Below are positions 35,247 through 48,002 of a stretch of 64,000 bases of DNA, piece after piece. The stretch is from the NCBI GenBank assembly GCA_000004985.1, contig GG738880.1; one strand, given 5' to 3'. The notes beneath the pieces were generated by a model that saw nothing but the letters and a program-made list of their open reading frames with translations, ran no database searches and was not told the DNA's origin. Both the position numbers and the translations under genes were made by a program. Source of the DNA: Naegleria gruberi. Taxonomy: Eukaryota. Positions within the stretch are counted from its first letter, which is position 1. The number at the start of each line of letters is the position of its first letter.

Positions 35247-35763
35247 TTATTTACTAGCCAAATCTTTCAGGGACATGAATTCCTTGAATTGATCATAGGT
35301 AATTCCACTATCTAAATCAATTCCGGCCTTTGAAAGTAAATTATTAATATTAATTTCGCTCATACTCTCATCACCCATCAATTTTAAAATCTTAATTTGA
35401 TAATTTACAATTTCCATTACAAAAAATTCAAAAACTTACTTCTTTCAATTCTTTCCTGTCAATTGTGCCACTTGAATCCTTGTCAAAAGTTTTGAAAAAT
35501 ACCTTTAATTCATCCTCACTTGATTGCTGACTCCAAACTTTGACAAATTCCTTAAAATCAATCTTTCCATCTTTGTTAGTATCAACCAAATTGAACATTT
35601 CTTCCAATTCTTCATTGGTTGGAGCACAACCATTCAATTGAAACATTACTTGAGAAAGTTCCTTCTTGCAAATACTTCCATTTCCATCAAGATCGAATAG
35701 ACAAAATGCTTCTTTCAATTCTGAGAGTTCATCCTTGGAGATTGTATCAGTTTCTGATGTCAT
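35247..35763 (-). CDS. calmodulin-like four-EF-hand Ca2+-binding protein, 2 exons (35440..35763 and 35247..35390; 49-nt intron)
   Basis: EF loops DLDGNGSICKKEL, DTNKDGKIDFKEF, DKDSSGTIDRKELKE. Exon 1 ends GAA|GTAAGT and the intron ends ..aattAAG. Exon 2 continues ILKLMGDESMSEININNLLSKAGIDLDSGITYDQFKEFMSLKDLASK* and supplies the fourth (degenerate) EF hand. Confidence 0.75.
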
Positions 35764-36044: not shown

Positions 36045-37535
36045 TTATTGTTTAGAATTGATGCTCTTCAAAACTGCCTTCTCATAATTCTTCAAGAAAT
36101 CTTTGAATTCATTTCTAAAATCTTTCAAAACCTTATTCTCAGCCATGGAGTTACCGCTCCTTGGGGAGTTTCTATTCGATTCTTTGGAAATGGTGAGTTG
36201 ATATCTTTCAAAGGCAGGTATTAAATTCTCGCTAACTTCCTTTTGGATTTCATCAAATAAAGTGAGAGGAACTACTTGAGCTTCATTCTGAGCTTGTTCT
36301 TTGATGAAATTTTCAACTTTCGCATAACCTTTAGTCTTGACATAATTAGGAGAACCTCTTGGATTCAGATACTTCTCATATAAATGAATCATTAAGGAAT
36401 CAATCTTCCTATTTGAAGCAATACTTGTTGTTGTATTGATTGAGTAGGCATCACTTGATTCAGAAACAGTATCTTGTTCAACGATGGACGAATCTTCTGA
36501 ATAATCTTTCAATTCTTCCAAGAAATTTCTCATCGTTTGAATTTCTTGCTTTTCAGGACTCTTGAAATCTTGAATGTCTTCCAACAGGAAAATACGATTC
36601 AAATCATTACTCGAATCTCCATAATTTTGTAAACTAATCCACTGTTTCAACAAGGATCTCTGTACAACCGAACTCATCACATTTTGCAACTGTAACCTTT
36701 TTGCCTTCATGAGTTTCTTCCTTGAAACTCTTTCCATTCTCAAAACACTGACAAAAATTGCAACACCAATTGGCAATGAAATTACCAAACAAATTAAAAC
36801 TACAATTAAATAAGTAGTTGAATTGGATGCAATCAATTCATGTTGAGTATTACTGATATTTCTAATCTGTTCAACAAATAAAAAGTAATCATTTAGGAAG
36901 GAGGATTGACCAGAAAAATGTTCAGGTTTCATAAATAATTTGACACCTTCAGAATAATTACCTGCCAAGGTTTGTTTTAGAATGGCATCTTGAAGTGGGA
37001 ATAAATAGAGAGTACTTGCATCCTTACTTGAGTTTGGGAAAACTTTCTCAGCACTTTCAGGTAATAATTTAAAGAGCTCATTAAACGAATCAATCATTTC
37101 ATTTCTTGATCGATTGAACAATGAATATTTTGACAGATCTTTGGAGAGAACCACCAAATTCACTGCACTACTCATCTTGTTATACTGGAAAGCACTATCA
37201 CCAAATATTTTCAAAGTTCTAAATACGGGAAAACTTGTTTTGGCAAAAGTATAAATTGTAATAATTGCAATAATTACAACGCCAATGATTGCTGTGCTTA
37301 TTCCCAACAGTGAAACCAATCTCATGAAGTTTAATTCAACAATCTTTTGAAAACATGGTAATTTAAAACGAGCAGTGTTTGATTTGGCAGTTTCACTCTT
37401 CTTTGAGCTTTTAACTTTGGAACTTGAGGTAATTGACTTGATGGATTTCTTTGGAGAATTAATACAAGTCGAAATTGGTGGATTAATTCTTTCAGAGGAT
37501 GCATTGATAACTTGTACTTGGTTACCAGCAACCAT
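36045..37535 (-). CDS. two-pass membrane protein with glycosylated loop and C-terminal RGS-like domain (496 aa)
   Basis: TM1 LVSLLGISTAIIGVVIIAIITIYTF, a ~190-aa loop with several NxS/T sites, TM2 YLIVVLICLVISLPIGVAIFVSVL followed by RMERVSRKK. The C-terminal ...IHLYEKYLNPRGSPNYVKTKGYAKVENFIKE...LTLFDEIQKEVSENLIPAFERYQ resembles the second half of an RGS box. It is a paralog of 37957..39545. Confidence 0.5.
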   Translation of the reverse strand: MVAGNQVQVINASSERINPPISTCINSPKKSIKSITSSSKVKSSKKSETAKSNTARFKLPCFQKIVELNFMRLVSLLGISTAIIGVVIIAIITIYTFAKTSFPVFRTLKIFGDSAFQYNKMSSAVNLVVLSKDLSKYSLFNRSRNEMIDSFNELFKLLPESAEKVFPNSSKDASTLYLFPLQDAILKQTLAGNYSEGVKLFMKPEHFSGQSSFLNDYFLFVEQIRNISNTQHELIASNSTTYLIVVLICLVISLPIGVAIFVSVLRMERVSRKKLMKAKRLQLQNVMSSVVQRSLLKQWISLQNYGDSSNDLNRIFLLEDIQDFKSPEKQEIQTMRNFLEELKDYSEDSSIVEQDTVSESSDAYSINTTTSIASNRKIDSLMIHLYEKYLNPRGSPNYVKTKGYAKVENFIKEQAQNEAQVVPLTLFDEIQKEVSENLIPAFERYQLTISKESNRNSPRSGNSMAENKVLKDFRNEFKDFLKNYEKAVLKSINSKQ

Positions 37536-37956
37536 TGTTTCACTTTTTTTTATTCTTTGAAAGTTAATTGAAAGTAAACAAAACCATCAAGTCCAAAAAC
37601 ACCCACCATCAAACATCAATGATACTTGTTGACATTGGATTCTTTTTTGGTCAATTATTCCATTAATAAAGATATCTTTATCGAGATAACATTTTCAAAC
37701 TCAAACTCATCGTTAGTCAATGTAGTTTATTTACATGTTGTCTAATAAAGTCCTCTGTCTTTTAATGTTAGTTTCCTTCTCTTTGAAATATTGGCTAAAT
37801 TATGTTATGGGCACTACGTTTACGTTTTTCTTGATGGAATGAACTAAATTGGTTGCTTATAATTGGGTGTTTGTTTTTCGAACTTGCGTATGAAGCGATT
37901 TAAGTCTCTTTTTATTCGAAATGGGTAAATTGTTTAGTCAATTACAACAATAAAAA

Positions 37957-39545
37957 ATGCAAGCAACATCTCCCACATCACCAAACACCACAACAGAGGA
38001 AGATTTTGAAGATAATGACAGTATTGTTGCTGAGGATGAAGAGAATGATAAGCAGATGAGAAATGTGGTATCGTATGGAGTGGGAGAAACTCAAGTTTCG
38101 TTTACTCAAAATCCACTTTCAGATACCTTTTCGTATTATGAGCCAGGAGAACACGCCAATACGAAACAAGGGAGTGAAAATGTGTGTCGTGGTGCTGTCA
38201 TTCGTTCATGGTTTCAGAAATTAAGAGAAAAGGATCTCATCATTCCATCCATGACTACCATTACACTTTTACTAATTATGGCATGTTTGATTGTAATAGT
38301 GGTTGCAGTTACAGCTCCATTCAAGGACATTACTACAGTGAACGTGGTTGATATTATGAGCTATCGTTCATCATTGTTGGCTGCTCATGTATCCATGAAA
38401 GGTTTTACTATCCAGTTTATTCCTATTTCCTCTACTATTTCATGAGATCATTTATGGAAGGGAGTTTACAAAATATGACGACGTTGCTGCCTCCAGAGTT
38501 TAAGCATGAATACTTGTATTATACGAATAATTATACGAATGCTTTCAAACAACCAACTGTTAAAGTGTGGGATAATGTGCTTATTGGTCCTACAATGTAT
38601 CCGTTCCCATTCACTATTGGAAATGAAACTGTAACATATTACTTGGTAGACAATCAAAAAATGGGACAAGCTCAACAAGTTTATTCTAGTGCAAACTATT
38701 CCACAATGCTATCTTCCTATGAGACATCGTTCTTCAATTATGTTGGAAATATCACAAGTTATTGTGAGAACATTTCAATCTCTACCAAAAACTATTACAT
38801 TGTAACAATATCAATGGTGGCATTCTGTTTGTTCATTGTCATCCCAACCATGATGTTAACTTTATTCTTTATTCTGAAGAAGGATAGAAAGAATGCAATT
38901 CAATTGAATCAAACAAGTGAAAATCTATTGAAAGAAACCATGTCTGATATGGCAACTCGACAGGCTTTCAAAATATTTTGTAACGAGAGAGGTTTTGGTG
39001 CTCACATCAATGCCATTGAGAAGATTATGTCATTTAAGGAACATTGTGAACAATCTCAGGAAATGCAAACGAAATTGATTGAAATTACTTCAGATTATGT
39101 CAATAAGGTTAATGCCATGCATGATCAAAACCATTTCAATCACAAAGGAGACAAAGTTAACTTTAAGATTGATGATAAAAAGACAAGAGCTATTTTCAAT
39201 ATTTCATGTGAAGCCGAAAAGAAAATCAAACATAAGGAATACATGAAATCGAGTTTAATTTTTGACATTTTGGAAGAAACTCAAGATGTAGCTAGCTCCA
39301 AAGTAACAAGTGAATTATTCTATGCCTATGATTGTTACAACAATAGAGAGAAAATGTTTCAAGATATTGACATTCTTCCCTCAATGATTATGGACAAACT
39401 GGAACATGAACTAAGTGATGCACTCATCAATACCCATTTAGATTTCAAGGCATCACTCAAAAACAATACCATGCTTTCAAATTCTGAACCACATCACACA
39501 GAAATCGATAGAGAAGAATTTGAGTTGGAGCTAGTCAATGTCTAA
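37957..39545 (+). CDS. paralogous two-pass membrane protein with C-terminal RGS-like domain; ORFs 37957..38445 and 38442..39545 are probably one gene broken by a -1 frame change or an unresolved very short intron
   Basis: ORF1 supplies the acidic N-terminus plus TM1 (TITLLLIMACLIVIVVAVTA). ORF2 supplies the N-glycosylated loop, TM2 (IVTISMVAFCLFIVIPTMMLTLFFIL, KKDRK) and ...LLKETMSDMATRQAFKIFCNERGFGAHINAIEKIMSFKEH...SSLIFDILEETQDVASSKVTSELFYAYD, which is RGS-box-like. The architecture matches 36045..37535 across both ORFs. Confidence 0.5.
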
Positions 39546-39617
39546 GCAAGCTGTTACCTGCGCGGACAATTTAATTAAGGGACAGTATAATTTGTAATCA
39601 AAAGGAATTGAGGAACT

Positions 39618-41594
39618 GTGACACTGTATAAAAATCCTTATTTCAACAAATTGCGCATGATTTTTCAAAAACACAAAAAAATGATTTCAAGCAATAACTC
39701 AATGTATTCAGAGCCTCAAAGGATGGCGATTGAATCACCTAATAAATTGTCGATCAAGATACAAGACGATGGATGTGGGATTGTATTCTTTTCAAAGGAG
39801 AAAGATGATCGGGTTGAGGTAAAGTTTCATAGAACTATTAGGCTTCCCGAAGATGATAAGAGCTATCCACTTCCCTCATCGATGGGATTATTTGCCATTG
39901 AGAAGGTTGATGATTATTTAGAGACGGTTCCTGAGGATTTCAAAAAGCATGGAGGTGTTTTTATATGTATACAACAGAGAGAGGCATTGAGAATGGAATT
40001 TGTCAATACAAATATTCATTTCCCTCATGCTTTGAAGATTGCTTCGGGAAAGATCAATGTATTGAGTGGAGAGGAATGGGATGAAAGGATTATAGAACGC
40101 CCAGTTCAAGATTATATTGTTTCACCAATGCAGAAGAGATTGGATGGAATTAATTGTGGTGGATTCAGAAAAGTGAAACAATTTGTGGCCATGCCTTTAG
40201 GAAAGGGTTACACTCTTGAAGGGCAATTAAGTACGAATGAAGAGGAATCAATTGGAGGTATCCAGATTATCTGTTTCAACTCTGACAGTAAGAAACGAGA
40301 GGAAAAGTTTGGACAAATTATTCCAACAAAACCAACCACTCCCAAAAAACCAATTCCAACAAATAAGGTGGTTCCACCAACTTCATCTGTTTCCAAACAA
40401 CCTCCAATGGTTAAAAGTTTGTCTGTAAAACAAAAGAAATCAACACAACCCACACCAAGTCCGAGATCTACTGGTCCATATTTATCGTCACCTTCTTCTC
40501 AAAGAAGATCAGCGTCTTCCAATGAGAAGAGTGGACCAGAAGAGATGGGAATTGCTCCTGGTGGCTCAATGAAACAGACCCTAGTAGCAGATCCATATAC
40601 TCCTCAATTCTGGGATGAACAAAGTAAAGCAAGAATCTTTGTTCATTTGGTGAATACAAAGATGTATACTCAAATCACTGGTAAGAGACCAACTGTTTCA
40701 CCAATAAGCAAGGAGACATACTTAAAACTCAATTATCCATGGTATGAACATTATGTTGAAGAGTCTGGGACCATTCCATCAAGTGAAATATTATCAGATA
40801 TCAATACAGTTAAAGAGACTGATGTCTCTCTATATGGAAAATCAAAAGACTCAACCACCTCAATAACTGTTGGAAAAATCATCAAGAAGACCACTTCAAT
40901 AGAAAAGGCTGATTTTATTCCTCCACCATTGCAAACAAAATCACATGCGTTTCGTGATATTTTGCCAAGAGAAATAGTGTTTCACATTGCTACCTTCCTG
41001 ACAGTTCCTCCTCTTAATAGATTGGCTAGATGTGACAGATATTTACTCGATTTGTTCTTTAATTTAACAGTTCCAAAAGTGTACTTAATTCAAAAAAGAA
41101 AACAAGAATTCAAGCAACAAGGGATTGAGACTGCAATAGTGTCGATGAAGGATATCTTTAAGGAAGATGAAGACTCACTTGTGCAAAAACTTGTCTGGAA
41201 ACCAATGGTATTATTCTACTTCCCAAGCTATCAAGAATCGTTAAATATCAAAAACTGGATGCATGTATTGAGGAGAAGAGTAACACATCTCATGAAAAAG
41301 TGCCCAACAGCTCTCCCTCTCACCAAACAAATGTCAACAGATGCATTCAAAGTTGATATGCCAACAAAGGATAGGAGGTTCATTGAGAATTGTGAGTGGG
41401 AGTATGAATGCCCTCTCAAGACAACTGACCTTAAAGAGGCTAGTACAGGTGTAAGGTATTGTCATGTTTGTAAAGAGAAGGTCTATGAAGTATTCACCAA
41501 AGAGGACTTTAAATCTCACATCTCACAAGATCACTGTGTCATGGTTACAACAGCTCCACAAAGACGAATCATGGGAAAAATAAGAATACAATAA
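39618..41594 (+). CDS. hypothetical protein with Pro/Ser/Thr-rich linker, F-box-like motif and C-terminal Cys/His cluster (658 aa)
   Basis: Long ORF. The N-terminal ~230 aa form an unrecognised globular region (VEVKFHRTIRLPEDDKSYPLPSSMGLFAI...GGVFICIQQREALRMEF). A PTKPTTPKKPIPT linker follows. ILPREIVFHIATFLTVPPLNRLARCDRYLLDLF is F-box-like. The end is ...YCHVCKEKVYEVFTKEDFKSHISQDHC. Confidence 0.55.
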   Translation: MTLYKNPYFNKLRMIFQKHKKMISSNNSMYSEPQRMAIESPNKLSIKIQDDGCGIVFFSKEKDDRVEVKFHRTIRLPEDDKSYPLPSSMGLFAIEKVDDYLETVPEDFKKHGGVFICIQQREALRMEFVNTNIHFPHALKIASGKINVLSGEEWDERIIERPVQDYIVSPMQKRLDGINCGGFRKVKQFVAMPLGKGYTLEGQLSTNEEESIGGIQIICFNSDSKKREEKFGQIIPTKPTTPKKPIPTNKVVPPTSSVSKQPPMVKSLSVKQKKSTQPTPSPRSTGPYLSSPSSQRRSASSNEKSGPEEMGIAPGGSMKQTLVADPYTPQFWDEQSKARIFVHLVNTKMYTQITGKRPTVSPISKETYLKLNYPWYEHYVEESGTIPSSEILSDINTVKETDVSLYGKSKDSTTSITVGKIIKKTTSIEKADFIPPPLQTKSHAFRDILPREIVFHIATFLTVPPLNRLARCDRYLLDLFFNLTVPKVYLIQKRKQEFKQQGIETAIVSMKDIFKEDEDSLVQKLVWKPMVLFYFPSYQESLNIKNWMHVLRRRVTHLMKKCPTALPLTKQMSTDAFKVDMPTKDRRFIENCEWEYECPLKTTDLKEASTGVRYCHVCKEKVYEVFTKEDFKSHISQDHCVMVTTAPQRRIMGKIRIQ

Positions 41595-41829
41595 TACTCG
41601 AAGTTCCCTCTTTCAGTCTTTAAAACACCAAGATCTGTTCTCCAATATTTATTGATAAAAATCGCTGCTTAGTAAACATTGATTCATGTGGAATACTTGA
41701 TCGATTCCTCATTCCTTTGTTGAGTGTGTTCAATGATGGAACACCACAATTCATTGATCTTGTCTAAATGGTTCTTTTTCTGGTTAAAACGGTATGTAAA
41801 GTTTGTCTGTTTATTAAGTAATTGCCATC

Positions 41830-44800
41830 CTAAACAATATATGCATCATCTTGCCAGGCCATTATATTTGTTTGTTTGGCCATTGACGTGAACATTTCCT
41901 TATTTTTTCTATAATTCTTAAAAGAACTAGTGGAAATGAATCGATAGAAAGTATCATTCATGTTAATCATGATTTGTTGAGAGAGCGAATCAAAACAAGT
42001 GATGATTCTTGCTTTGAGGATTCGTTCTTCCTCTTCATTTAGACCATCCAATTGTTTGTGAAGCTCGTTTCCAAATAGAAGTGCATTGAATTGATTTTCT
42101 GGCGAGGTTGGCTCGTTGACTGGTGAAAATAATGCTTGATTACACGAAAGTAAGGCACTTCTTTTGGAGGATACATAAAAATGTAATTCTGTAAATAGAT
42201 TTTTGGTAAGGGATGGGACATTCACCTCATAGATCGATCCAGAGCATATAAAGTTCTCATTTATCCTGTCCATAAACATTGGAAGCAAAGATAAATTATC
42301 ACCCATGACAATTGACTTGTTTTGGATTAATTCCAAAAACAAGTAAAGATTTTCCAATGAAAATTCCTTCTTTGAATATTCTTCAAACAACTCAAATCCT
42401 GATTGATCTTGCAGAGTTTCAATTAATTCAGTTTGTTCAAATAATTCATCACTTGTTGCAATTGACCTCTTTTTGGTTTTAAATCTGAGCAATATTACCA
42501 AAGCAAATCCACCGAATATAAACACATAAATTGCAGAGTAGATAGTTTCGAAAATACACTGCAAAACTAGAAAATATTGAGCAGTGTCATCCTGTGAATC
42601 TTTGAATTCATGGCTCAGAATTCCACTCATCATTTGAATAAGGCAAGCTAAAAAGCAAACTAAAAAGAGAATCATTTCCATTCTGAAATATAGAGGATTA
42701 TCCAGTTGAAGTATTCTAAATAGAACATTCTTTCTTTCGAATGATAAAGATGGTCTATCAGTATTCATTTCGTCTTGTTTCCTTTCACTCAATTGAACTA
42801 CTCGAGAACTGTTTCTAATATTTGATTTTTCCTTCCTTCTTATAGAAGAAATAATATCAATCAAGATGGTGATGGAAATTGTGATAGAGCAGATGATTAT
42901 AATACCAGCATAGGTCATTGAAGTTATTCGAATGTAATCTTCAGGTAAAATCAAGTCTAATCGAACAAGTATTACCAATAACGACCAAATAATTACATTC
43001 ACCAACAGGCAAACTACAACTAGAAAGTTAAATAGAATTGGTGATGTAATTAATTTCAACATTCTAATGATATTTCTATTCGAATCATTCGTTTTTAGTT
43101 TCAATTCTTCATACAGAGCTTTCATAAATTGAAATCTAATAACCTGAATTAGATATGCAAATATTGCAGTGATATTCAAAGAATTCACAATAACCATGCA
43201 TACATTTCCAATAATATTCACACCCATCAAACTATTCGAAGGATCACTAATTTCATACACAAACAATCCCTCTTGTAAAATGGAAAGTACACTTTCGAAT
43301 AAAATAGCAATCATTCCCACAAATGGTGTAATCATTCTACTCTGCACTGGTTGCTGTTTTCTAAATATTCCTAGAAGAAACAACAATATAATTGAAACTA
43401 AACTGAAAATTACGTTAATTCCCATCTGAACATATTGAACTGACAAGACGAATGTTTGATCTATTGGAGCTTTAAACTTCATATTTGGTTTCGGTGGGTT
43501 TCCCTCGGAATATTCTGTAGAGGTCAAGTTTCTTCTTTCGTATTGGAGAAAAGTTGAGAATTTTGTTGTGTGTGAACATGAACATTGAGCTATTCCAGTA
43601 ATGTTATCGTAATAATCGAGGGAGCAGCCGTGTCCAGACCATTTCATTGAAATTTCGTCCCAGAATAGGCATGAGATGGCAAATTGTTCAACTATGGTCG
43701 TTGTCGTGTTAACAATAGTTTCGGTTTCATTATTGGAAACTGTTTCATTAATTTGAGATTCGGATAAAACTACTCGAGGATCTAATGTTAAATTTCCTCT
43801 GGAAACATCGTTAATAACAAACTGTAGAGTTATTGGATTCATTAAATCAACTTTACAACTTCAGCATTTTGAAAATATTTCAATTCTTGAATGAAAGATG
43901 ACATTTGATTTTGCATTGAAAAATTATCATTTCTGATGTTTCTTTCATATGTTATTAGTGATAGTCCAAGATTAGTTCCAAATCCACCATATTTTCCAGC
44001 AATTTCTCTCAAATCCAATTGAATGTTTCCTCCATTAGTTTCTAATAGAAATTTAGTAGAGTTTTGAGCTAAATTTTGCAAGCTTCTTGCGCCCCTAGTT
44101 AACACAAAGGAAGAAAAGGTAGTATTCAGTCCAGAGGTTGAAAATTTAGTATAGGGAAGATTAGTGACATCACTGTCAGTGCTCAAAACTTTAGGAATTT
44201 CTGATTTCAACATTAATTTCGTAAATGACAAGATTAAATTTTCAGTTTTCCGCATTTCATCATCAACTAACATCATTCCTTTTTGAGAAATAGTTATTGA
44301 GCTAGAAGATGAACCAAAAATATTTGCCAACAAACTACTTGCTGTCAATTTCGCATCTTGTGTCAAACTAGATTTCACATATCCGTACGAATCTATTTCT
44401 TTCTGATATAAATCCAAAGTATTATACAAAAAACTATTCACACTATTCGAAAGCTGATTCAAAACCTTCTTATCCTTCATTATTGAAGATTCGGATGAAA
44501 TTGAATTCAAAACTTTCAATGAAGAATCAGCATTTGTAATATCAATATTGAGATTATTAATTAAATTCAATATTAGATTGGTGTTATTCGTATTCGATAG
44601 AGCTGACTGATCAAAAAGAAGGACGTGTTTCGAATAATCGCTTAGGTATTCCAATTCTTTTGAAAGAGGATTGACCTGAGCTGTGGCCACTCTCAAGGAT
44701 TGTTCGAATCCTTCTGAATCTTTTACAAAGATTACAATATCAATGGGTGAGGTTGACCATGAATTTCTAGAAAGTGATTTGAATAGATAGGGAAGAGGAA

Positions 44801-47759
44801 GCTTTGAAACTGGTTCTGTTGAATATTCTGTTACTCTAATTAAGGAAGATGTTGATGGAATGCCATTGGTGGACTTGTCTTGATATTTGTTGTAAAATCC
44901 GAAAGCATACGAAAGTGGTCGAAGGTTTAAATTATTCACAATCCATTCAGGTGAAGAAACAAAGAATGAATCCACCACAGCCATTCCCTCTTTTGGACTC
45001 AATTCAATTCTATTAAAATAATCTTCTGGATAAATTGCAGGTTTTGTAATGATAATTGAAATTCTCGATTTTTCAAAGGATTGAAATGAATATCTTATTG
45101 AGAGAATTGTAACACTAATTTGAAATACAAACTCTGATCCGTCATCAAATGCATCCAAATTCATATTTGGGAATGGATTTGAAATATTCATTTGTAATAT
45201 TGGGTTGAGTTGAATAGTGGAATCGTCTCTATATCTCTGAGCTAGTATTGGTCCACTATTTTCAAGTATTCGAATTGGGGTTTTGAAATCTGATGAATTG
45301 AATACAGTTATAGTTGATTGGTAGTTCAATTGACAAGTAGTGTTATCTAATGAGAATCCAACACAATCGTTCAATAGAAAGTCAACTCCTTCAGGATAAT
45401 TAAACGAAACTCTGTTAATTAGAATGGAAATATCTAAATTCTTGGTAAATGCCATAGTGGAAGACAACTTGTAAGTTTGCACATTTGTAATTAGCACATC
45501 TTGAGGCTGAATTAGTTTCTTTGGTATGAACAATACAGTAGAAAGAGTATTCAAAAGAATATCTTGTGAATATCTCTCACTAAGCACTCCCCGAATCAAA
45601 AATTCATAATAATATTCTCTTTTTAGAGAAGAAACATCCAAACTAAACTCTTGACTCTCCACAATCCATGCATTTTCATAAGAATTGTACATGTAATCGG
45701 TACAATTAGAACACCAAACTCTATACGAAACTAAACCTGATTGAATACTGCTCCCAATCTTGAATGAAATCAACCCTTCACTCCCATTGACATTCGATCC
45801 ATTCAATGCTATTTCTAAATTAGCTGCAACTCTTGAACTATCAACATATGAATCACATAAACTTCCATAAAAGGTTCCATTCTCAGTCTTTTTACATTCA
45901 CAAGTATCGATATTGGAACAAACTCCATTTCCTGAACAAGCATTCGAATCTGTATTTGCAATTCCCCAACAAGAATATAATTCACAACTGTCTCCGTAAT
46001 ATCCATCCTGACAGGAACATTTCAATTCTTTGGTGCAGGTTCCTCTCTTCATACATTGAGGAATGATAGAGTTGGGTTGGCATTTGTAAGAGTTACACTG
46101 CTCTCCTGAATATCCAGTGAGGCATTCACAATGATCTGGACCTGTGCATTGTCCGAAACCAGAACAAACTAAACTATCGTTTGAGAATTTTCCATAACAT
46201 TGAAAGAGATCACATTGAGTCCCAACTCTTCCACTCTCTTCAGCACATAGACAATTGTTAGGCGCTACACAAGATCCAAATCCTGAACAAACTTTTTCAT
46301 TATTGTAAGGAATTTCATAACAATCAAAATTTTCACAAGTCGTTCCATAATAGCCCAATTGACAAGAACAATTTCCAGGTGAAATGCAACTTCCCCTTCC
46401 TGAGCATATGAGAGATTTACCTGTATCCAACAACAATACAGAAACTCCTCCACATTCATAATCATTACAAGTCACTCCAGAGAAACCCTCAAAACAAGAG
46501 CAGTTTCCTCCAACTTGACAATCTCCATTTCCAGAGCAAACTATTAGTGAGCTTGCCTTAATTCCATAACATTGACTTTCGTATTGACAGGCATCTCCAT
46601 AGAAACCATTTTTACATGAGCATTGATTCAGTCCAGTACATTTTCCATTCCCATAACAAACATTTGAATCATTACTCGGCACCCCATAACAATTCATAAA
46701 ACCACTGATGGTCATTAGATAACCATATGGTATGGTGGAACTGAGTGTTGGTCCACCACCAGCAAACAATAAGGAATTTCCCATATTAAGCACTGATATT
46801 CCATACGCAGAGTAAGGTGAGTTGAATGAAGTAACATTCTCCCAAATTGACATGTTATTAAGGTTAGCTCTAAGCATACTCCTTCCTAAAGATCCAGAAA
46901 AGATGTAGGCATAATTCGCAGAAATGAAAGAAGCACTTCCAAAAACTGAATTGGGTAGTGAAATGGGTGAAAGTTTCCAAACAGAATTTGATGATGCATT
47001 ACTTGTCGTGAGAGAATCCAATTGATCAAATGAAGTGTAATAGATTGTCTTGTAATAGTTTAGTAAATCACTTCCTCCTCCAACAATGTAAATCATTCTT
47101 CCTACGCTAAAGACACTAGCTGCAAATATGGCATTTGGAAATGTCCCAACTCTTTGCCAAATTGTTGGGGAGCTCAAGTTGGCCATATACACAGCTTTAG
47201 AATATTCTGAATTGAATGAACCTCCTATTAGAAAGAGGTTCTTCTCTGTTCTAAAGAAAACTGGCATTGTGCAAGAATAGGGAAGCTCCTCATCCAATAC
47301 TGAAAACGACTGCAAATCAGACAGTTTTGCTCGCATTATCTTTGATGTTCCACCTCCAAATATATAAGCATAATCAATTCCATTCAAGTTCAAAACTTGA
47401 AATGCATAGCCATAGGCCTTTTGAGGTAACTTTCCAATCACTGAGAATGGCCCCACAGTGTCAAGCGTAATTTGGGAGTAATTTGAATAACCTCCATTGA
47501 TCAGCTGGCTTGTAATTTTGCTCGAAATTGAAACGTTTGATGATTGAATATTGTCAAGAGGATTGTTTCCATCAAAACCTCCGAATGAATAAAGTTTCAT
47601 TGAGGATGAATCGAAGAAGAGAGTCGAATAGGAACCAGAAGCTTGGGGAAATACATTGAGTTGTGGGGAGAGGGTGAAGGGTTCTTCCTCGATTCCCATT
47701 AAAAAATTGTTGGATAGCTGAATGAGAGTTATAAAGATGAAGAGAAATAATCGAAGCAT
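41830..47759 (-). CDS. adhesion-GPCR-like receptor with C-terminal RGS domain: signal peptide, Kelch-type beta-propeller, ~10 tenascin-type EGF repeats, long extracellular stalk, GPS motif, 7TM, RGS. Proposed join(43857..47759, 41830..43821) with a 35-nt intron 43822..43856.
   Basis: Upstream ORF: hydrophobic MLRLFLFIFITLIQL; Kelch-like blades (LYSFGGFDGNNPL, YAYIFGGG, LFLIGGSFN, MIYIVGGGSD, SLLFAGGGP); repeats of CxGxGxCxxxxxCxCxxGFxGxxC. Downstream ORF: GPS motif CLFWDEISMKWSGHGCSLDYYDNITGIAQCSCSHTTKFSTF, 7 predicted TM helices, and the RGS box SGFELFEEYSKKEFSLENLYLFLEL...DTFYRFISTSSFKNY. The ORFs are in different frames and overlap as TAATG. A GTAAAG...TACAG intron removes the stop and joins ...NAEV|FVIND in phase. 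Confidence 0.65.
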
Positions 47760-47929: not shown

Positions 47930-48002
47930 TATACCCTGTGGGACTCGAACCCACAACCCCCGGCTCCGTAGGCCGATGCTCTTCCAATTGAGCCAAGGGT
48001 AC
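47930..48002 (-). tRNA. tRNA-Arg (anticodon ACG)
   Basis: Reverse complement: GTACCCT TG GCTC AATTGGAA GAGC A TCGGC CTACGGA GCCGG GGGTT GTGGG TTCGAGT CCCAC AGGGTAT A. All four stems pair, and the D-loop, T-loop (TTCGAGT) and anticodon loop are canonical. Confidence 0.85.

Follow-up and report, generated by a model that had tools for sequence, protein, structure and literature searches.

A conserved gene pair for two-transmembrane proteins with degenerate RGS-like domains in Naegleria

Naegleria gruberi possesses one of the largest G-protein toolkits known, with 229 proteins in which Pfam recognises a regulator of G-protein signalling (RGS) domain, encoded in a genome of 41 Mb (PMC3971589, PMC8296547), and about 44 G-alpha subunits (PMC3971589, PMC8584482). 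Some Naegleria G-alpha subunits activate themselves, so that receptors controlling a GTPase-activating protein (GAP), and not exchange factors, may be the main inputs of the system (PMC9283941). Naegleria fowleri possesses 28 seven-transmembrane (7TM) RGS proteins, many of them with GPS and EGF ectodomains, and GAP activity has been measured for three of the RGS domains (PMC9283941). RGS proteins anchored by transmembrane (TM) segments have also been noted as a general category (PMC3971589). Here we describe a 64-kb stretch of N. gruberi DNA (contig GG738880.1; called the window throughout; GC content 31-39%), the genes of which were read from its map of open reading frames (ORFs). In this window two neighbouring genes, gene 1 and gene 2, encode proteins with two TM segments (2-TM) and an RGS-like tail, and a gene for a 7TM-RGS receptor lies close by.

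A sequence-only reading of the window had suggested a lineage-specific tandem expansion of the three genes, with ligand- or sensor-coupled GAPs among their products. We consider it reasonably probable, instead, that genes 1 and 2 belong to a conserved A/B pair of likely hetero-oligomeric sensors with degenerate, non-GAP RGS domains, that their canonical relatives are sensor-coupled GAPs, and that the receptor stands next to them by coincidence.

A family of 2-TM proteins and its gene pairs

Word-indexed protein searches returned only the query proteins and the N. fowleri orthologue of gene 1, and a full HMMER search was needed. Among 1.84 billion representatives, HMMER found 74 relatives, most of them spanning most of the profile. 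N. gruberi contributes at least 12 of the named relatives, and the others belong to N. fowleri, N. lovaniensis and Willaertia magna; all remaining members are encoded on environmental contigs. To date, the family is known solely in heterolobosean amoebae (Naegleria, Willaertia) and on such contigs. Its layout consists of a cytosolic N-terminal tail, TM1, a four-helix bundle of about 150 amino acids (aa), TM2 and, on the cytosolic side, an RGS-fold domain that carries a variable insert. Both genes of the window follow this plan, with a cytosolic tail, TM1, a loop of 150-165 aa bearing glycosylation sequons, TM2 and a helical tail. One of the canonical members is N. gruberi D2VQY2 (EFC40792), which carries the annotation 'RGS and transmembrane domain-containing protein'. 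The gene 1 product is 100% identical to the N. gruberi 'predicted protein' D2VLF5, encoded on a 416-kb scaffold, and has orthologues in N. fowleri (FDP41_010370) and N. lovaniensis (C9374_008930).

The expectation that the two 2-TM proteins would align with each other was borne out, as they are homologous over their full length (Smith-Waterman z 7; 23% identity) and are both recognised by a hidden Markov model (HMM) of the loop alone (75 and 22 bits, respectively). When the Smith-Waterman comparison was restricted to the tails it was weak (z 2.5), and gene 2 was missed by a two-sequence HMM made from gene 1 and its orthologue in N. fowleri, so that the homology is clear only with family profiles.

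In a neighbour-joining tree, gene 1 falls into clade A (bootstrap 93), gene 2 into clade B (98), and a large canonical group is recovered with a bootstrap of 94; at a finer level, D2VFX8 is joined to gene 1 (97) and D2VFX9 to gene 2 (99). At five loci, an A gene and a B gene were seen side by side at the DNA level. The pair is divergent in the window and on two environmental contigs, L003 (P0018 for A and P0066 for B) and L005 (P0067 for A and P0058 for B), both of the latter being head-to-head with a similar spacing of about 0.3-0.6 kb, and convergent in N. fowleri (L001 10001..14529, FDP41_010370 and FDP41_010371) and N. lovaniensis (L002). Two further N. gruberi pairs, D2VFX8/D2VFX9 and D2VH57/D2VH58, are suggested by consecutive UniProt accessions on the same scaffold, a guide calibrated on genes 1 and 2 themselves, which are D2VLF5 and D2VLF7. 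The trees of the two clades are congruent, as expected if the pair was duplicated as a unit, and the two genes were already neighbours before N. gruberi, N. fowleri and N. lovaniensis separated; distant environmental relatives show the adjacency as well. These results indicate that A and B form an old pair that has been duplicated as a unit, and not a recent local expansion. The proposed lineage-specific tandem expansion of three genes is thus not supported, given two old clades (bootstrap 93 and 98), an adjacency that was in place before speciation and a receptor gene that is not syntenic in N. fowleri or N. lovaniensis.

Genes 1 and 2 had been described as lying head-to-head 420 bp apart, and the measured gap is 421 bp; this spacer is presumed to act as a bidirectional promoter for both. 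As the orientation of the pair is not conserved among the loci, a shared promoter is not required. The pair has been rearranged, tail-to-tail versus head-to-head, while remaining adjacent.

Two other arrangements were seen in the family. The canonical N. fowleri genes FDP41_008207 and FDP41_008208 (P0024, P0082) have adjacent locus tags, and their products belong to one 90%-identity cluster, which also holds a 1236-aa N. fowleri protein from another annotation (P0083), possibly a fusion of the two; the two appear to have arisen by a recent tandem duplication among the canonical members. In addition, the B-like gene P0026, located on a JGI metagenome contig, adjoins an arrestin-domain gene (Arrestin_N and Arrestin_C; L004 1062..4848), arrestins being another component of signalling by G-protein receptors.

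RGS-fold tails and their G-alpha contacts

Searches with Pfam RGS (PF00615, gathering cut-off 23.9 bits) gave no match for full-length gene 1 or gene 2. The gene 1 tail without its insert reached 22.9 bits (E 1.2e-4), below the cut-off, the gene 2 tail alone gave no match, and the N. fowleri orthologues gave 8.8 bits and no match, respectively. Next to these values, an HMM built from the cytosolic tails of 65 relatives, with the clades of genes 1 and 2 left out, scored gene 1 with 65.7 bits, gene 2 with 117.9 bits (115.6 in the window scan) and the receptor with 40.1 bits; with 300 shuffles of each sequence, no score rose above 6.4 bits. Over the whole 64-kb window only these three scored, which confirms that three genes of this kind exist, as had been claimed. 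The RGS-like boxes assigned to genes 1 and 2 on the sequence-only reading are therefore upheld by the family tail HMM, and not by the standard Pfam model, which calls neither. Pfam RGS is matched by 44 of 73 family members (best E 7.8e-12), and standard Pfam scans under-count RGS-fold genes in these genomes.

The full-family profile found nothing in the PDB at E <=0.01, and 11 of its 23 weak matches were RGS chains, aligned in register; a phmmer search of the PDB with the gene 1 tail returned a spurious match only. Gene 1 was modelled with AlphaFold2 (AF2) from 73 sequences, with a mean predicted local distance difference test (pLDDT) value of 83.3. In an earlier run with three sequences the pLDDT of the tail was below 50, and the fold search was informative for the loop only. 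The matches behind the RGS-fold call for gene 1 are RGS22 (score 13.1), RGS3 (12.1; 113 residues, 2.2 A), RGS4 (11.9), SNX13 (11.1), RGS7 (10.6), SNX25 (10.0), Axin (10.0) and RhoGEF rgRGS (9.0-9.6). By this model, an all-helical RGS fold is established for the gene 1 tail, and the gene 2 tail would share it, given its strong family homology.

The tails were then aligned to RGS4, the sequence of which was checked against 1agr_E. As the residues of RGS4 in contact with G-alpha in the complex with Gi-alpha-1 we take S85, E87, N88, N128, D163 and R167, that is, SENNDR. The corresponding residues are DNR-PR in gene 1 and FAH-ND in gene 2, so that one of the six contacts (R167) is kept in the former and none in the latter, and none in the orthologues of either gene. 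The receptor reads SENNDR, with all six kept, five of them securely aligned and the N128 column weakly so. In 65 other family tails (one per 50%-identity representative), all six contacts are present in 25, five in 9 and at most two in 28; it is the canonical group that keeps all six RGS4-type contacts, hardly any of which survive in clades A and B. The idea that genes 1 and 2 encode ligand-coupled GAPs is therefore not supported, with 1/6 and 0/6 contacts against 6/6 in 25 of the 65 tails. Between orthologues, identity is 43-53% in the RGS halves, 39-41% in the loop and 8-36% in tails and inserts. As the RGS halves match or surpass the loop and go far beyond tails and inserts despite the lost contacts, the RGS-fold domain is under constraint, though probably not for the classical GAP contacts, and a non-GAP role of the gene 1 and gene 2 tails appears likely from their residues.

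The strongest competitor of this reading, which we nevertheless regard as rather unlikely, holds that both 2-TM proteins are ordinary ligand-regulated GAPs, whose RGS domains would still bind transition-state G-alpha and speed up hydrolysis through lineage-specific contacts suited to divergent Naegleria G-alpha subunits. Conservation of the tail domain between orthologues would fit such a role, as would the arginine retained in gene 1, the complete set of contacts in canonical members of the same family and the many atypical G-alpha subunits of Naegleria (PMC8584482, PMC9283941). However, five to six of the six contacts are replaced, including the equivalents of N88 and N128, and paralogues in the same genomes retain SENNDR, from which it is evident that Naegleria G-alpha still uses the canonical interface. 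A G-to-S mutation in switch 1 abolishes the GAP activity of N. fowleri 7TM-RGS proteins (PMC9283941), which also speaks against this alternative.

Gene 2, the outer bundle and the neighbouring receptor

Gene 2 had been read as a gene spanning 37957..39545. It is indeed one gene, and it is not a single open frame, being divided between two ORFs in different frames (Table 1). The public N. gruberi model, NAEGRDRAFT_50525 (D2VLF7), comprises only 356 aa of the second ORF and is without TM1. Both ORFs are matched by N. fowleri FDP41_010371, a 750-aa protein the gene of which is annotated as one exon, the second with 38% identity (E 4e-88) and the first, over residues 190-293 of that protein, with 35% identity (E 6e-17). 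In tblastn, the frame-1 alignment stops at 38406 and the frame-3 alignment begins at 38403, which puts the switch inside a T-run. Taken together, the alignment of FDP41_010371 to both ORFs and the switch within the T-run indicate one gene with a 1-nt frameshift and no intron. Either the assembly is in error by this one base, or the gene has mutated very recently. An intron at the junction was considered and rejected, as there is no GTAAGT-type or consensus donor nearby and the alignment with the orthologue is continuous across the site; in contrast, a genuine N. gruberi intron nearby does carry GTAAGT. The N. lovaniensis orthologue of gene 2 (L002 12223..14064, minus) lies in four frame segments and is annotated as two genes of 288 and 170 aa; it is continuous where N. 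gruberi is frameshifted, and its segments could reflect introns, assembly indels or decay.

It may be asked whether gene 2 is functional at all. Were it a pseudogene in N. gruberi NEG-M, the two genes would have no joint function and their adjacency would be the leftover of an old tandem duplication. The frameshift at 38403..38406 that splits the gene, the public model without TM1 and the four frame segments in N. lovaniensis are all compatible with this, but a single T missing from a T-run is equally explained by an assembly error, both ORFs are otherwise open over 1.6 kb, and the 35-38% identity to an intact N. fowleri gene is conservation as seen in a domain. Moreover, a mere leftover predicts neither the A/B adjacency in three non-orthologous, DNA-checked pairs nor the congruent trees. 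We therefore hold a pseudogene to be unlikely, somewhat more so than ordinary GAPs.

As for the membrane topology, the sequence-only reading was right about the two TM segments, the sequon-rich loop and the basic stretch after TM2, and too generous with the loop, which was put at about 190 aa and measures about 150 aa in gene 1 and 160 aa in gene 2. The proline within TM2 of gene 1 (Pro255) is invariant across 73 family sequences, and eight of 20 residues past TM2 are K or R. In gene 2, the strong hydrophobic segments by hydropathy are residues 102-120 of the first ORF and 126-144 of the second. NxS/T sequons are concentrated between the TM segments, with five in gene 1 and six in gene 2, and the loop is probably extracytoplasmic. 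In the AF2 model of gene 1 the chain between TM1 and TM2 forms an antiparallel four-helix bundle, the best structural matches of which are full-length sensor domains likewise sited between two TM segments. A loop-only HMM from 59 other members scored gene 1 with 75.3 bits and gene 2 with 22.0 bits (E 7e-9), shuffles giving at most 10, so the ectodomain is common to the whole family. Neither 4HB_MCP nor TarH matched genes 1 and 2 (E up to 1) or figured among the 12 Pfam families listed for the 73 members (E up to 0.01), and no chemoreceptor or kinase sensor chain appeared in the family-profile search of the PDB at E up to 10. Since the modelled loop resembles the four-helix bundles of bacterial chemoreceptor ligand-binding domains, the sensor-coupled design that had been suggested for these proteins is judged plausible, and genes 1 and 2 may have a sensing function.

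Some further features of the N-terminal region were observed. A Cys-Cys dipeptide (consensus TCCG), a possible palmitoylation site, lies just before TM1 on the cytosolic side in 32 of 65 family members, in an alignment of the 30 residues that precede TM1, and genes 1 and 2 have a single Cys at this position (gene 1 region about residues 40-69). The AF2 model of gene 1 shows a short beta-hairpin at residues 55-68.

The bundle also bears on whether the proteins might be endomembrane scaffolds, with the loop as a lumenal spacer and the RGS-like domain as a protein- or lipid-binding module, in the manner of the two-TM proteins SNX13, SNX14 and SNX25. We find this less likely still than a pseudogene. 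SNX proteins have a short TM hairpin and are not known to carry a folded 150-aa domain between their TM segments; the best matches of the bundle are full-length sensor domains placed between two TM segments as here; in addition, PXA, PX and PXC domains were absent from Pfam scans of genes 1 and 2 and of the scanned family members.

The third gene had been identified as a 7TM-RGS receptor, and this identification stood, with seven hydrophobic segments and a Pfam RGS domain above threshold (25.0 bits for the full length, 29.2 for the isolated tail). The GPS scored 25.5 bits (cut-off 22.5), and in the 5' ORF EGF_2 was matched with E 1.7e-25 and Kelch with 2.9e-7, below cut-off. GPS, seven TM segments, a C-terminal RGS domain and an EGF ectodomain are those of an adhesion-type 7TM-RGS protein, provided that the two ORFs are continuous. 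They abut in different frames, with a TAATG overlap at 43842, and probably form one gene joined by a change of frame, either through a candidate 35-nt intron (GTAAAG..CTACAG, 43822..43856, minus) or through a 1-nt frameshift. Like gene 2, the receptor gene thus has a broken frame in the assembly. The receptor matches an ordinary member of the GPS/EGF class of 7TM-RGS proteins.

In pairwise comparisons the receptor is not significantly similar to gene 1 or gene 2. The N. fowleri locus has these two genes, and nothing else, in common with the window, and they are also the only ones shared with the N. lovaniensis locus. In both species the pair lies between TruB and NMD3/TsaD genes, and no 7TM-RGS gene was found nearby. 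From 229 genes in 41 Mb (PMC3971589), the chance that an RGS gene lies within 10 kb of any one locus works out at roughly 10%. The lack of synteny and of specific similarity, together with this chance expectation, speaks against the receptor as part of a cluster, and its proximity to the pair is most likely coincidental. It is accordingly very improbable that the three genes arose by a recent tandem expansion specific to the lineage, or that they work as an RGS module with the receptor as a member: three RGS-type ORFs and no others do lie within 12 kb of the 64-kb window and the receptor tail reaches 40 bits on the family tail HMM, but the receptor differs in architecture (GPS and 7TM), synteny largely refutes the module, and genes 1 and 2, only 23% identical, sit in separate old clades.

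The features of the locus are collected in Table 1. The 658-aa ORF that separates gene 2 from the receptor is unrelated to the RGS genes. Its product combines a linker rich in Pro, Ser and Thr with a Cys/His-rich C-terminal region and gave no significant Pfam match, the C-terminal region having a weak one to zf-C2H2_12 (E 0.08). Beyond gene 1, an EF-hand (calmodulin-like) gene with an ORF at 35428..35763 (minus) has a second exon, ending in ...KDLASK, on the far side of a 49-nt intron (GTAAGT..AG, 35391..35439, minus), which shows that N. gruberi uses very short canonical introns. A tRNA-Arg(ACG) gene at 47930..48002 (minus) lies directly upstream of the receptor start.

Table 1. Positions of genes and domains around the A/B pair in the N. 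gruberi window
Feature	Position	Strand	Basis or remark
Gene 1 (clade A 2-TM RGS-like protein, 496 aa)	36045..37535	minus	intact ORF; NAEGRDRAFT_69761, D2VLF5
Gene 1, predicted cytosolic RGS-fold domain, about residues 283-455, disordered insert about 348-365	36171..36689	minus	
Gene 1, TM2, residues 244-262, containing Pro255	36750..36806	minus	hydropathy 3.12
Gene 1, predicted extracytoplasmic four-helix-bundle loop, residues 95-243, 5 NxS/T sequons	36807..37253	minus	
Gene 1, TM1, residues 76-94	37254..37310	minus	hydropathy 2.77 over 19 aa; helical in AF2 model
Divergent spacer between genes 1 and 2, 421 bp	37536..37956	.	ORF map; bidirectional promoter presumed
Gene 2, 5' part: cytosolic tail, TM1 (38260..38316), start of loop	37957..38406	plus	ORF 37957..38445
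Gene 2, frameshift site GGTTTTAC	38401..38408	plus	one base short of continuous frame
Gene 2, 3' part (clade B): loop, TM2 (38817..38873), RGS-like domain (38874..39479)	38403..39545	plus	ORF 38442..39545
Unrelated 658-aa ORF between gene 2 and receptor	39618..41594	plus	ORF map
Receptor, 3' ORF: GPS (43555..43674), seven hydrophobic segments (42517..43452), RGS (41887..42429)	41830..43842	minus	
Receptor, 5' ORF: signal peptide, Kelch propeller (46755..47597), EGF repeats (45840..46661), long pre-GPS region	43842..47759	minus	

A possible sensor pair compared with known systems

In the reading that we favour, the A and B proteins would work together, most likely as a hetero-oligomer held by the bundle and the TM helices, in the way that bacterial chemoreceptors and sensor kinases dimerise. 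The outer bundle would sense a ligand or a surface cue. The degenerate RGS domains would exert no classical GAP action and might instead bind or scaffold a partner, which could be G-alpha in a non-canonical mode or another protein, by analogy with the RGS-homology domains of Axin, SNX and RhoGEF proteins. The canonical family members, in turn, would probably be sensor-coupled GAPs comparable to 7TM-RGS proteins.

Several observations weigh against this reading. The case for a hetero-oligomer is made by gene adjacency and congruent trees, and the orientation of the pair varies, being divergent in N. gruberi, L003 and L005 and convergent in N. fowleri and N. lovaniensis. On the 6.5-kb contig L004, the ambiguous B-like gene P0026 stands without a family partner. 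The loss of GAP contacts was read from an alignment at 14-16% identity, in which genes 1 and 2 have a gap around N128 and gene 1 retains R167. The AF2 model covers gene 1, so that the fold of the gene 2 tail is deduced from homology, and a Foldseek search of the PDB yielded no match at E <=0.001 and no RGS chains. The loop has no sequence similarity to the bacterial sensor domains. Finally, the frameshifted gene 2 and its multi-frame N. lovaniensis orthologue could be signs of decay rather than of function.

A bolder version of the same idea would have A and B form an obligate heterodimer, a type of surface receptor so far not described in eukaryotes. In it, a chemoreceptor-like two-TM bundle would be combined with paired pseudo-RGS domains that capture or release G-alpha or another effector and do not accelerate GTP hydrolysis, beside the canonical sensor-GAPs. 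This seems doubtful to us, to about the same degree as the ordinary GAPs discussed above. Even in the more modest form of a conserved pair with degenerate tails, such proteins would extend the 'receptor-GAP' idea past the 7TM-RGS class to a second type of receptor with RGS output, and conserved A/B pairs with degenerate RGS domains point to subunit-type specialisation. The two-TM bundle design offers a simple soluble ectodomain and an assayable tail. The public models need correction, that of gene 2, truncated and without TM1, and probably that of the receptor too.

In the searchable literature we found no description of the bundle ectodomain, of the split into canonical, A and B members or of the A/B gene pairing. 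The closest described systems are the 7TM-RGS receptor-GAPs, Arabidopsis AtRGS1 and N. fowleri 7TM RGS1-4 (PMC9283941), which likewise fuse a membrane sensing module to a C-terminal cytosolic RGS domain and also occur in organisms with self-activating G-alpha. The third gene of the window is a straightforward member of this class; unlike it, genes 1 and 2 have two TM segments, a four-helix-bundle ectodomain and an RGS domain without the canonical contacts. With regard to the ectodomain, the bacterial 4HB sensors Tar, Tsr, Vc1313, MCP2201, PcaY and HK9, and the Pfam families 4HB_MCP and TarH, were compared. They differ from the proteins described here in having no detectable sequence similarity to them, in that the host here is eukaryotic and in that the output is an RGS domain and not HAMP with a kinase-control module; the likeness of the modelled bundle may be convergent. 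With respect to the tails, the comparison is with RGS-homology domains lacking classical GAP function, those of Axin, SNX13/14/25, RhoGEF (rgRGS) and GRK (RH), which share no accessory domains with genes 1 and 2. The degenerate state of A and B arose independently, inside a family that still has canonical members.

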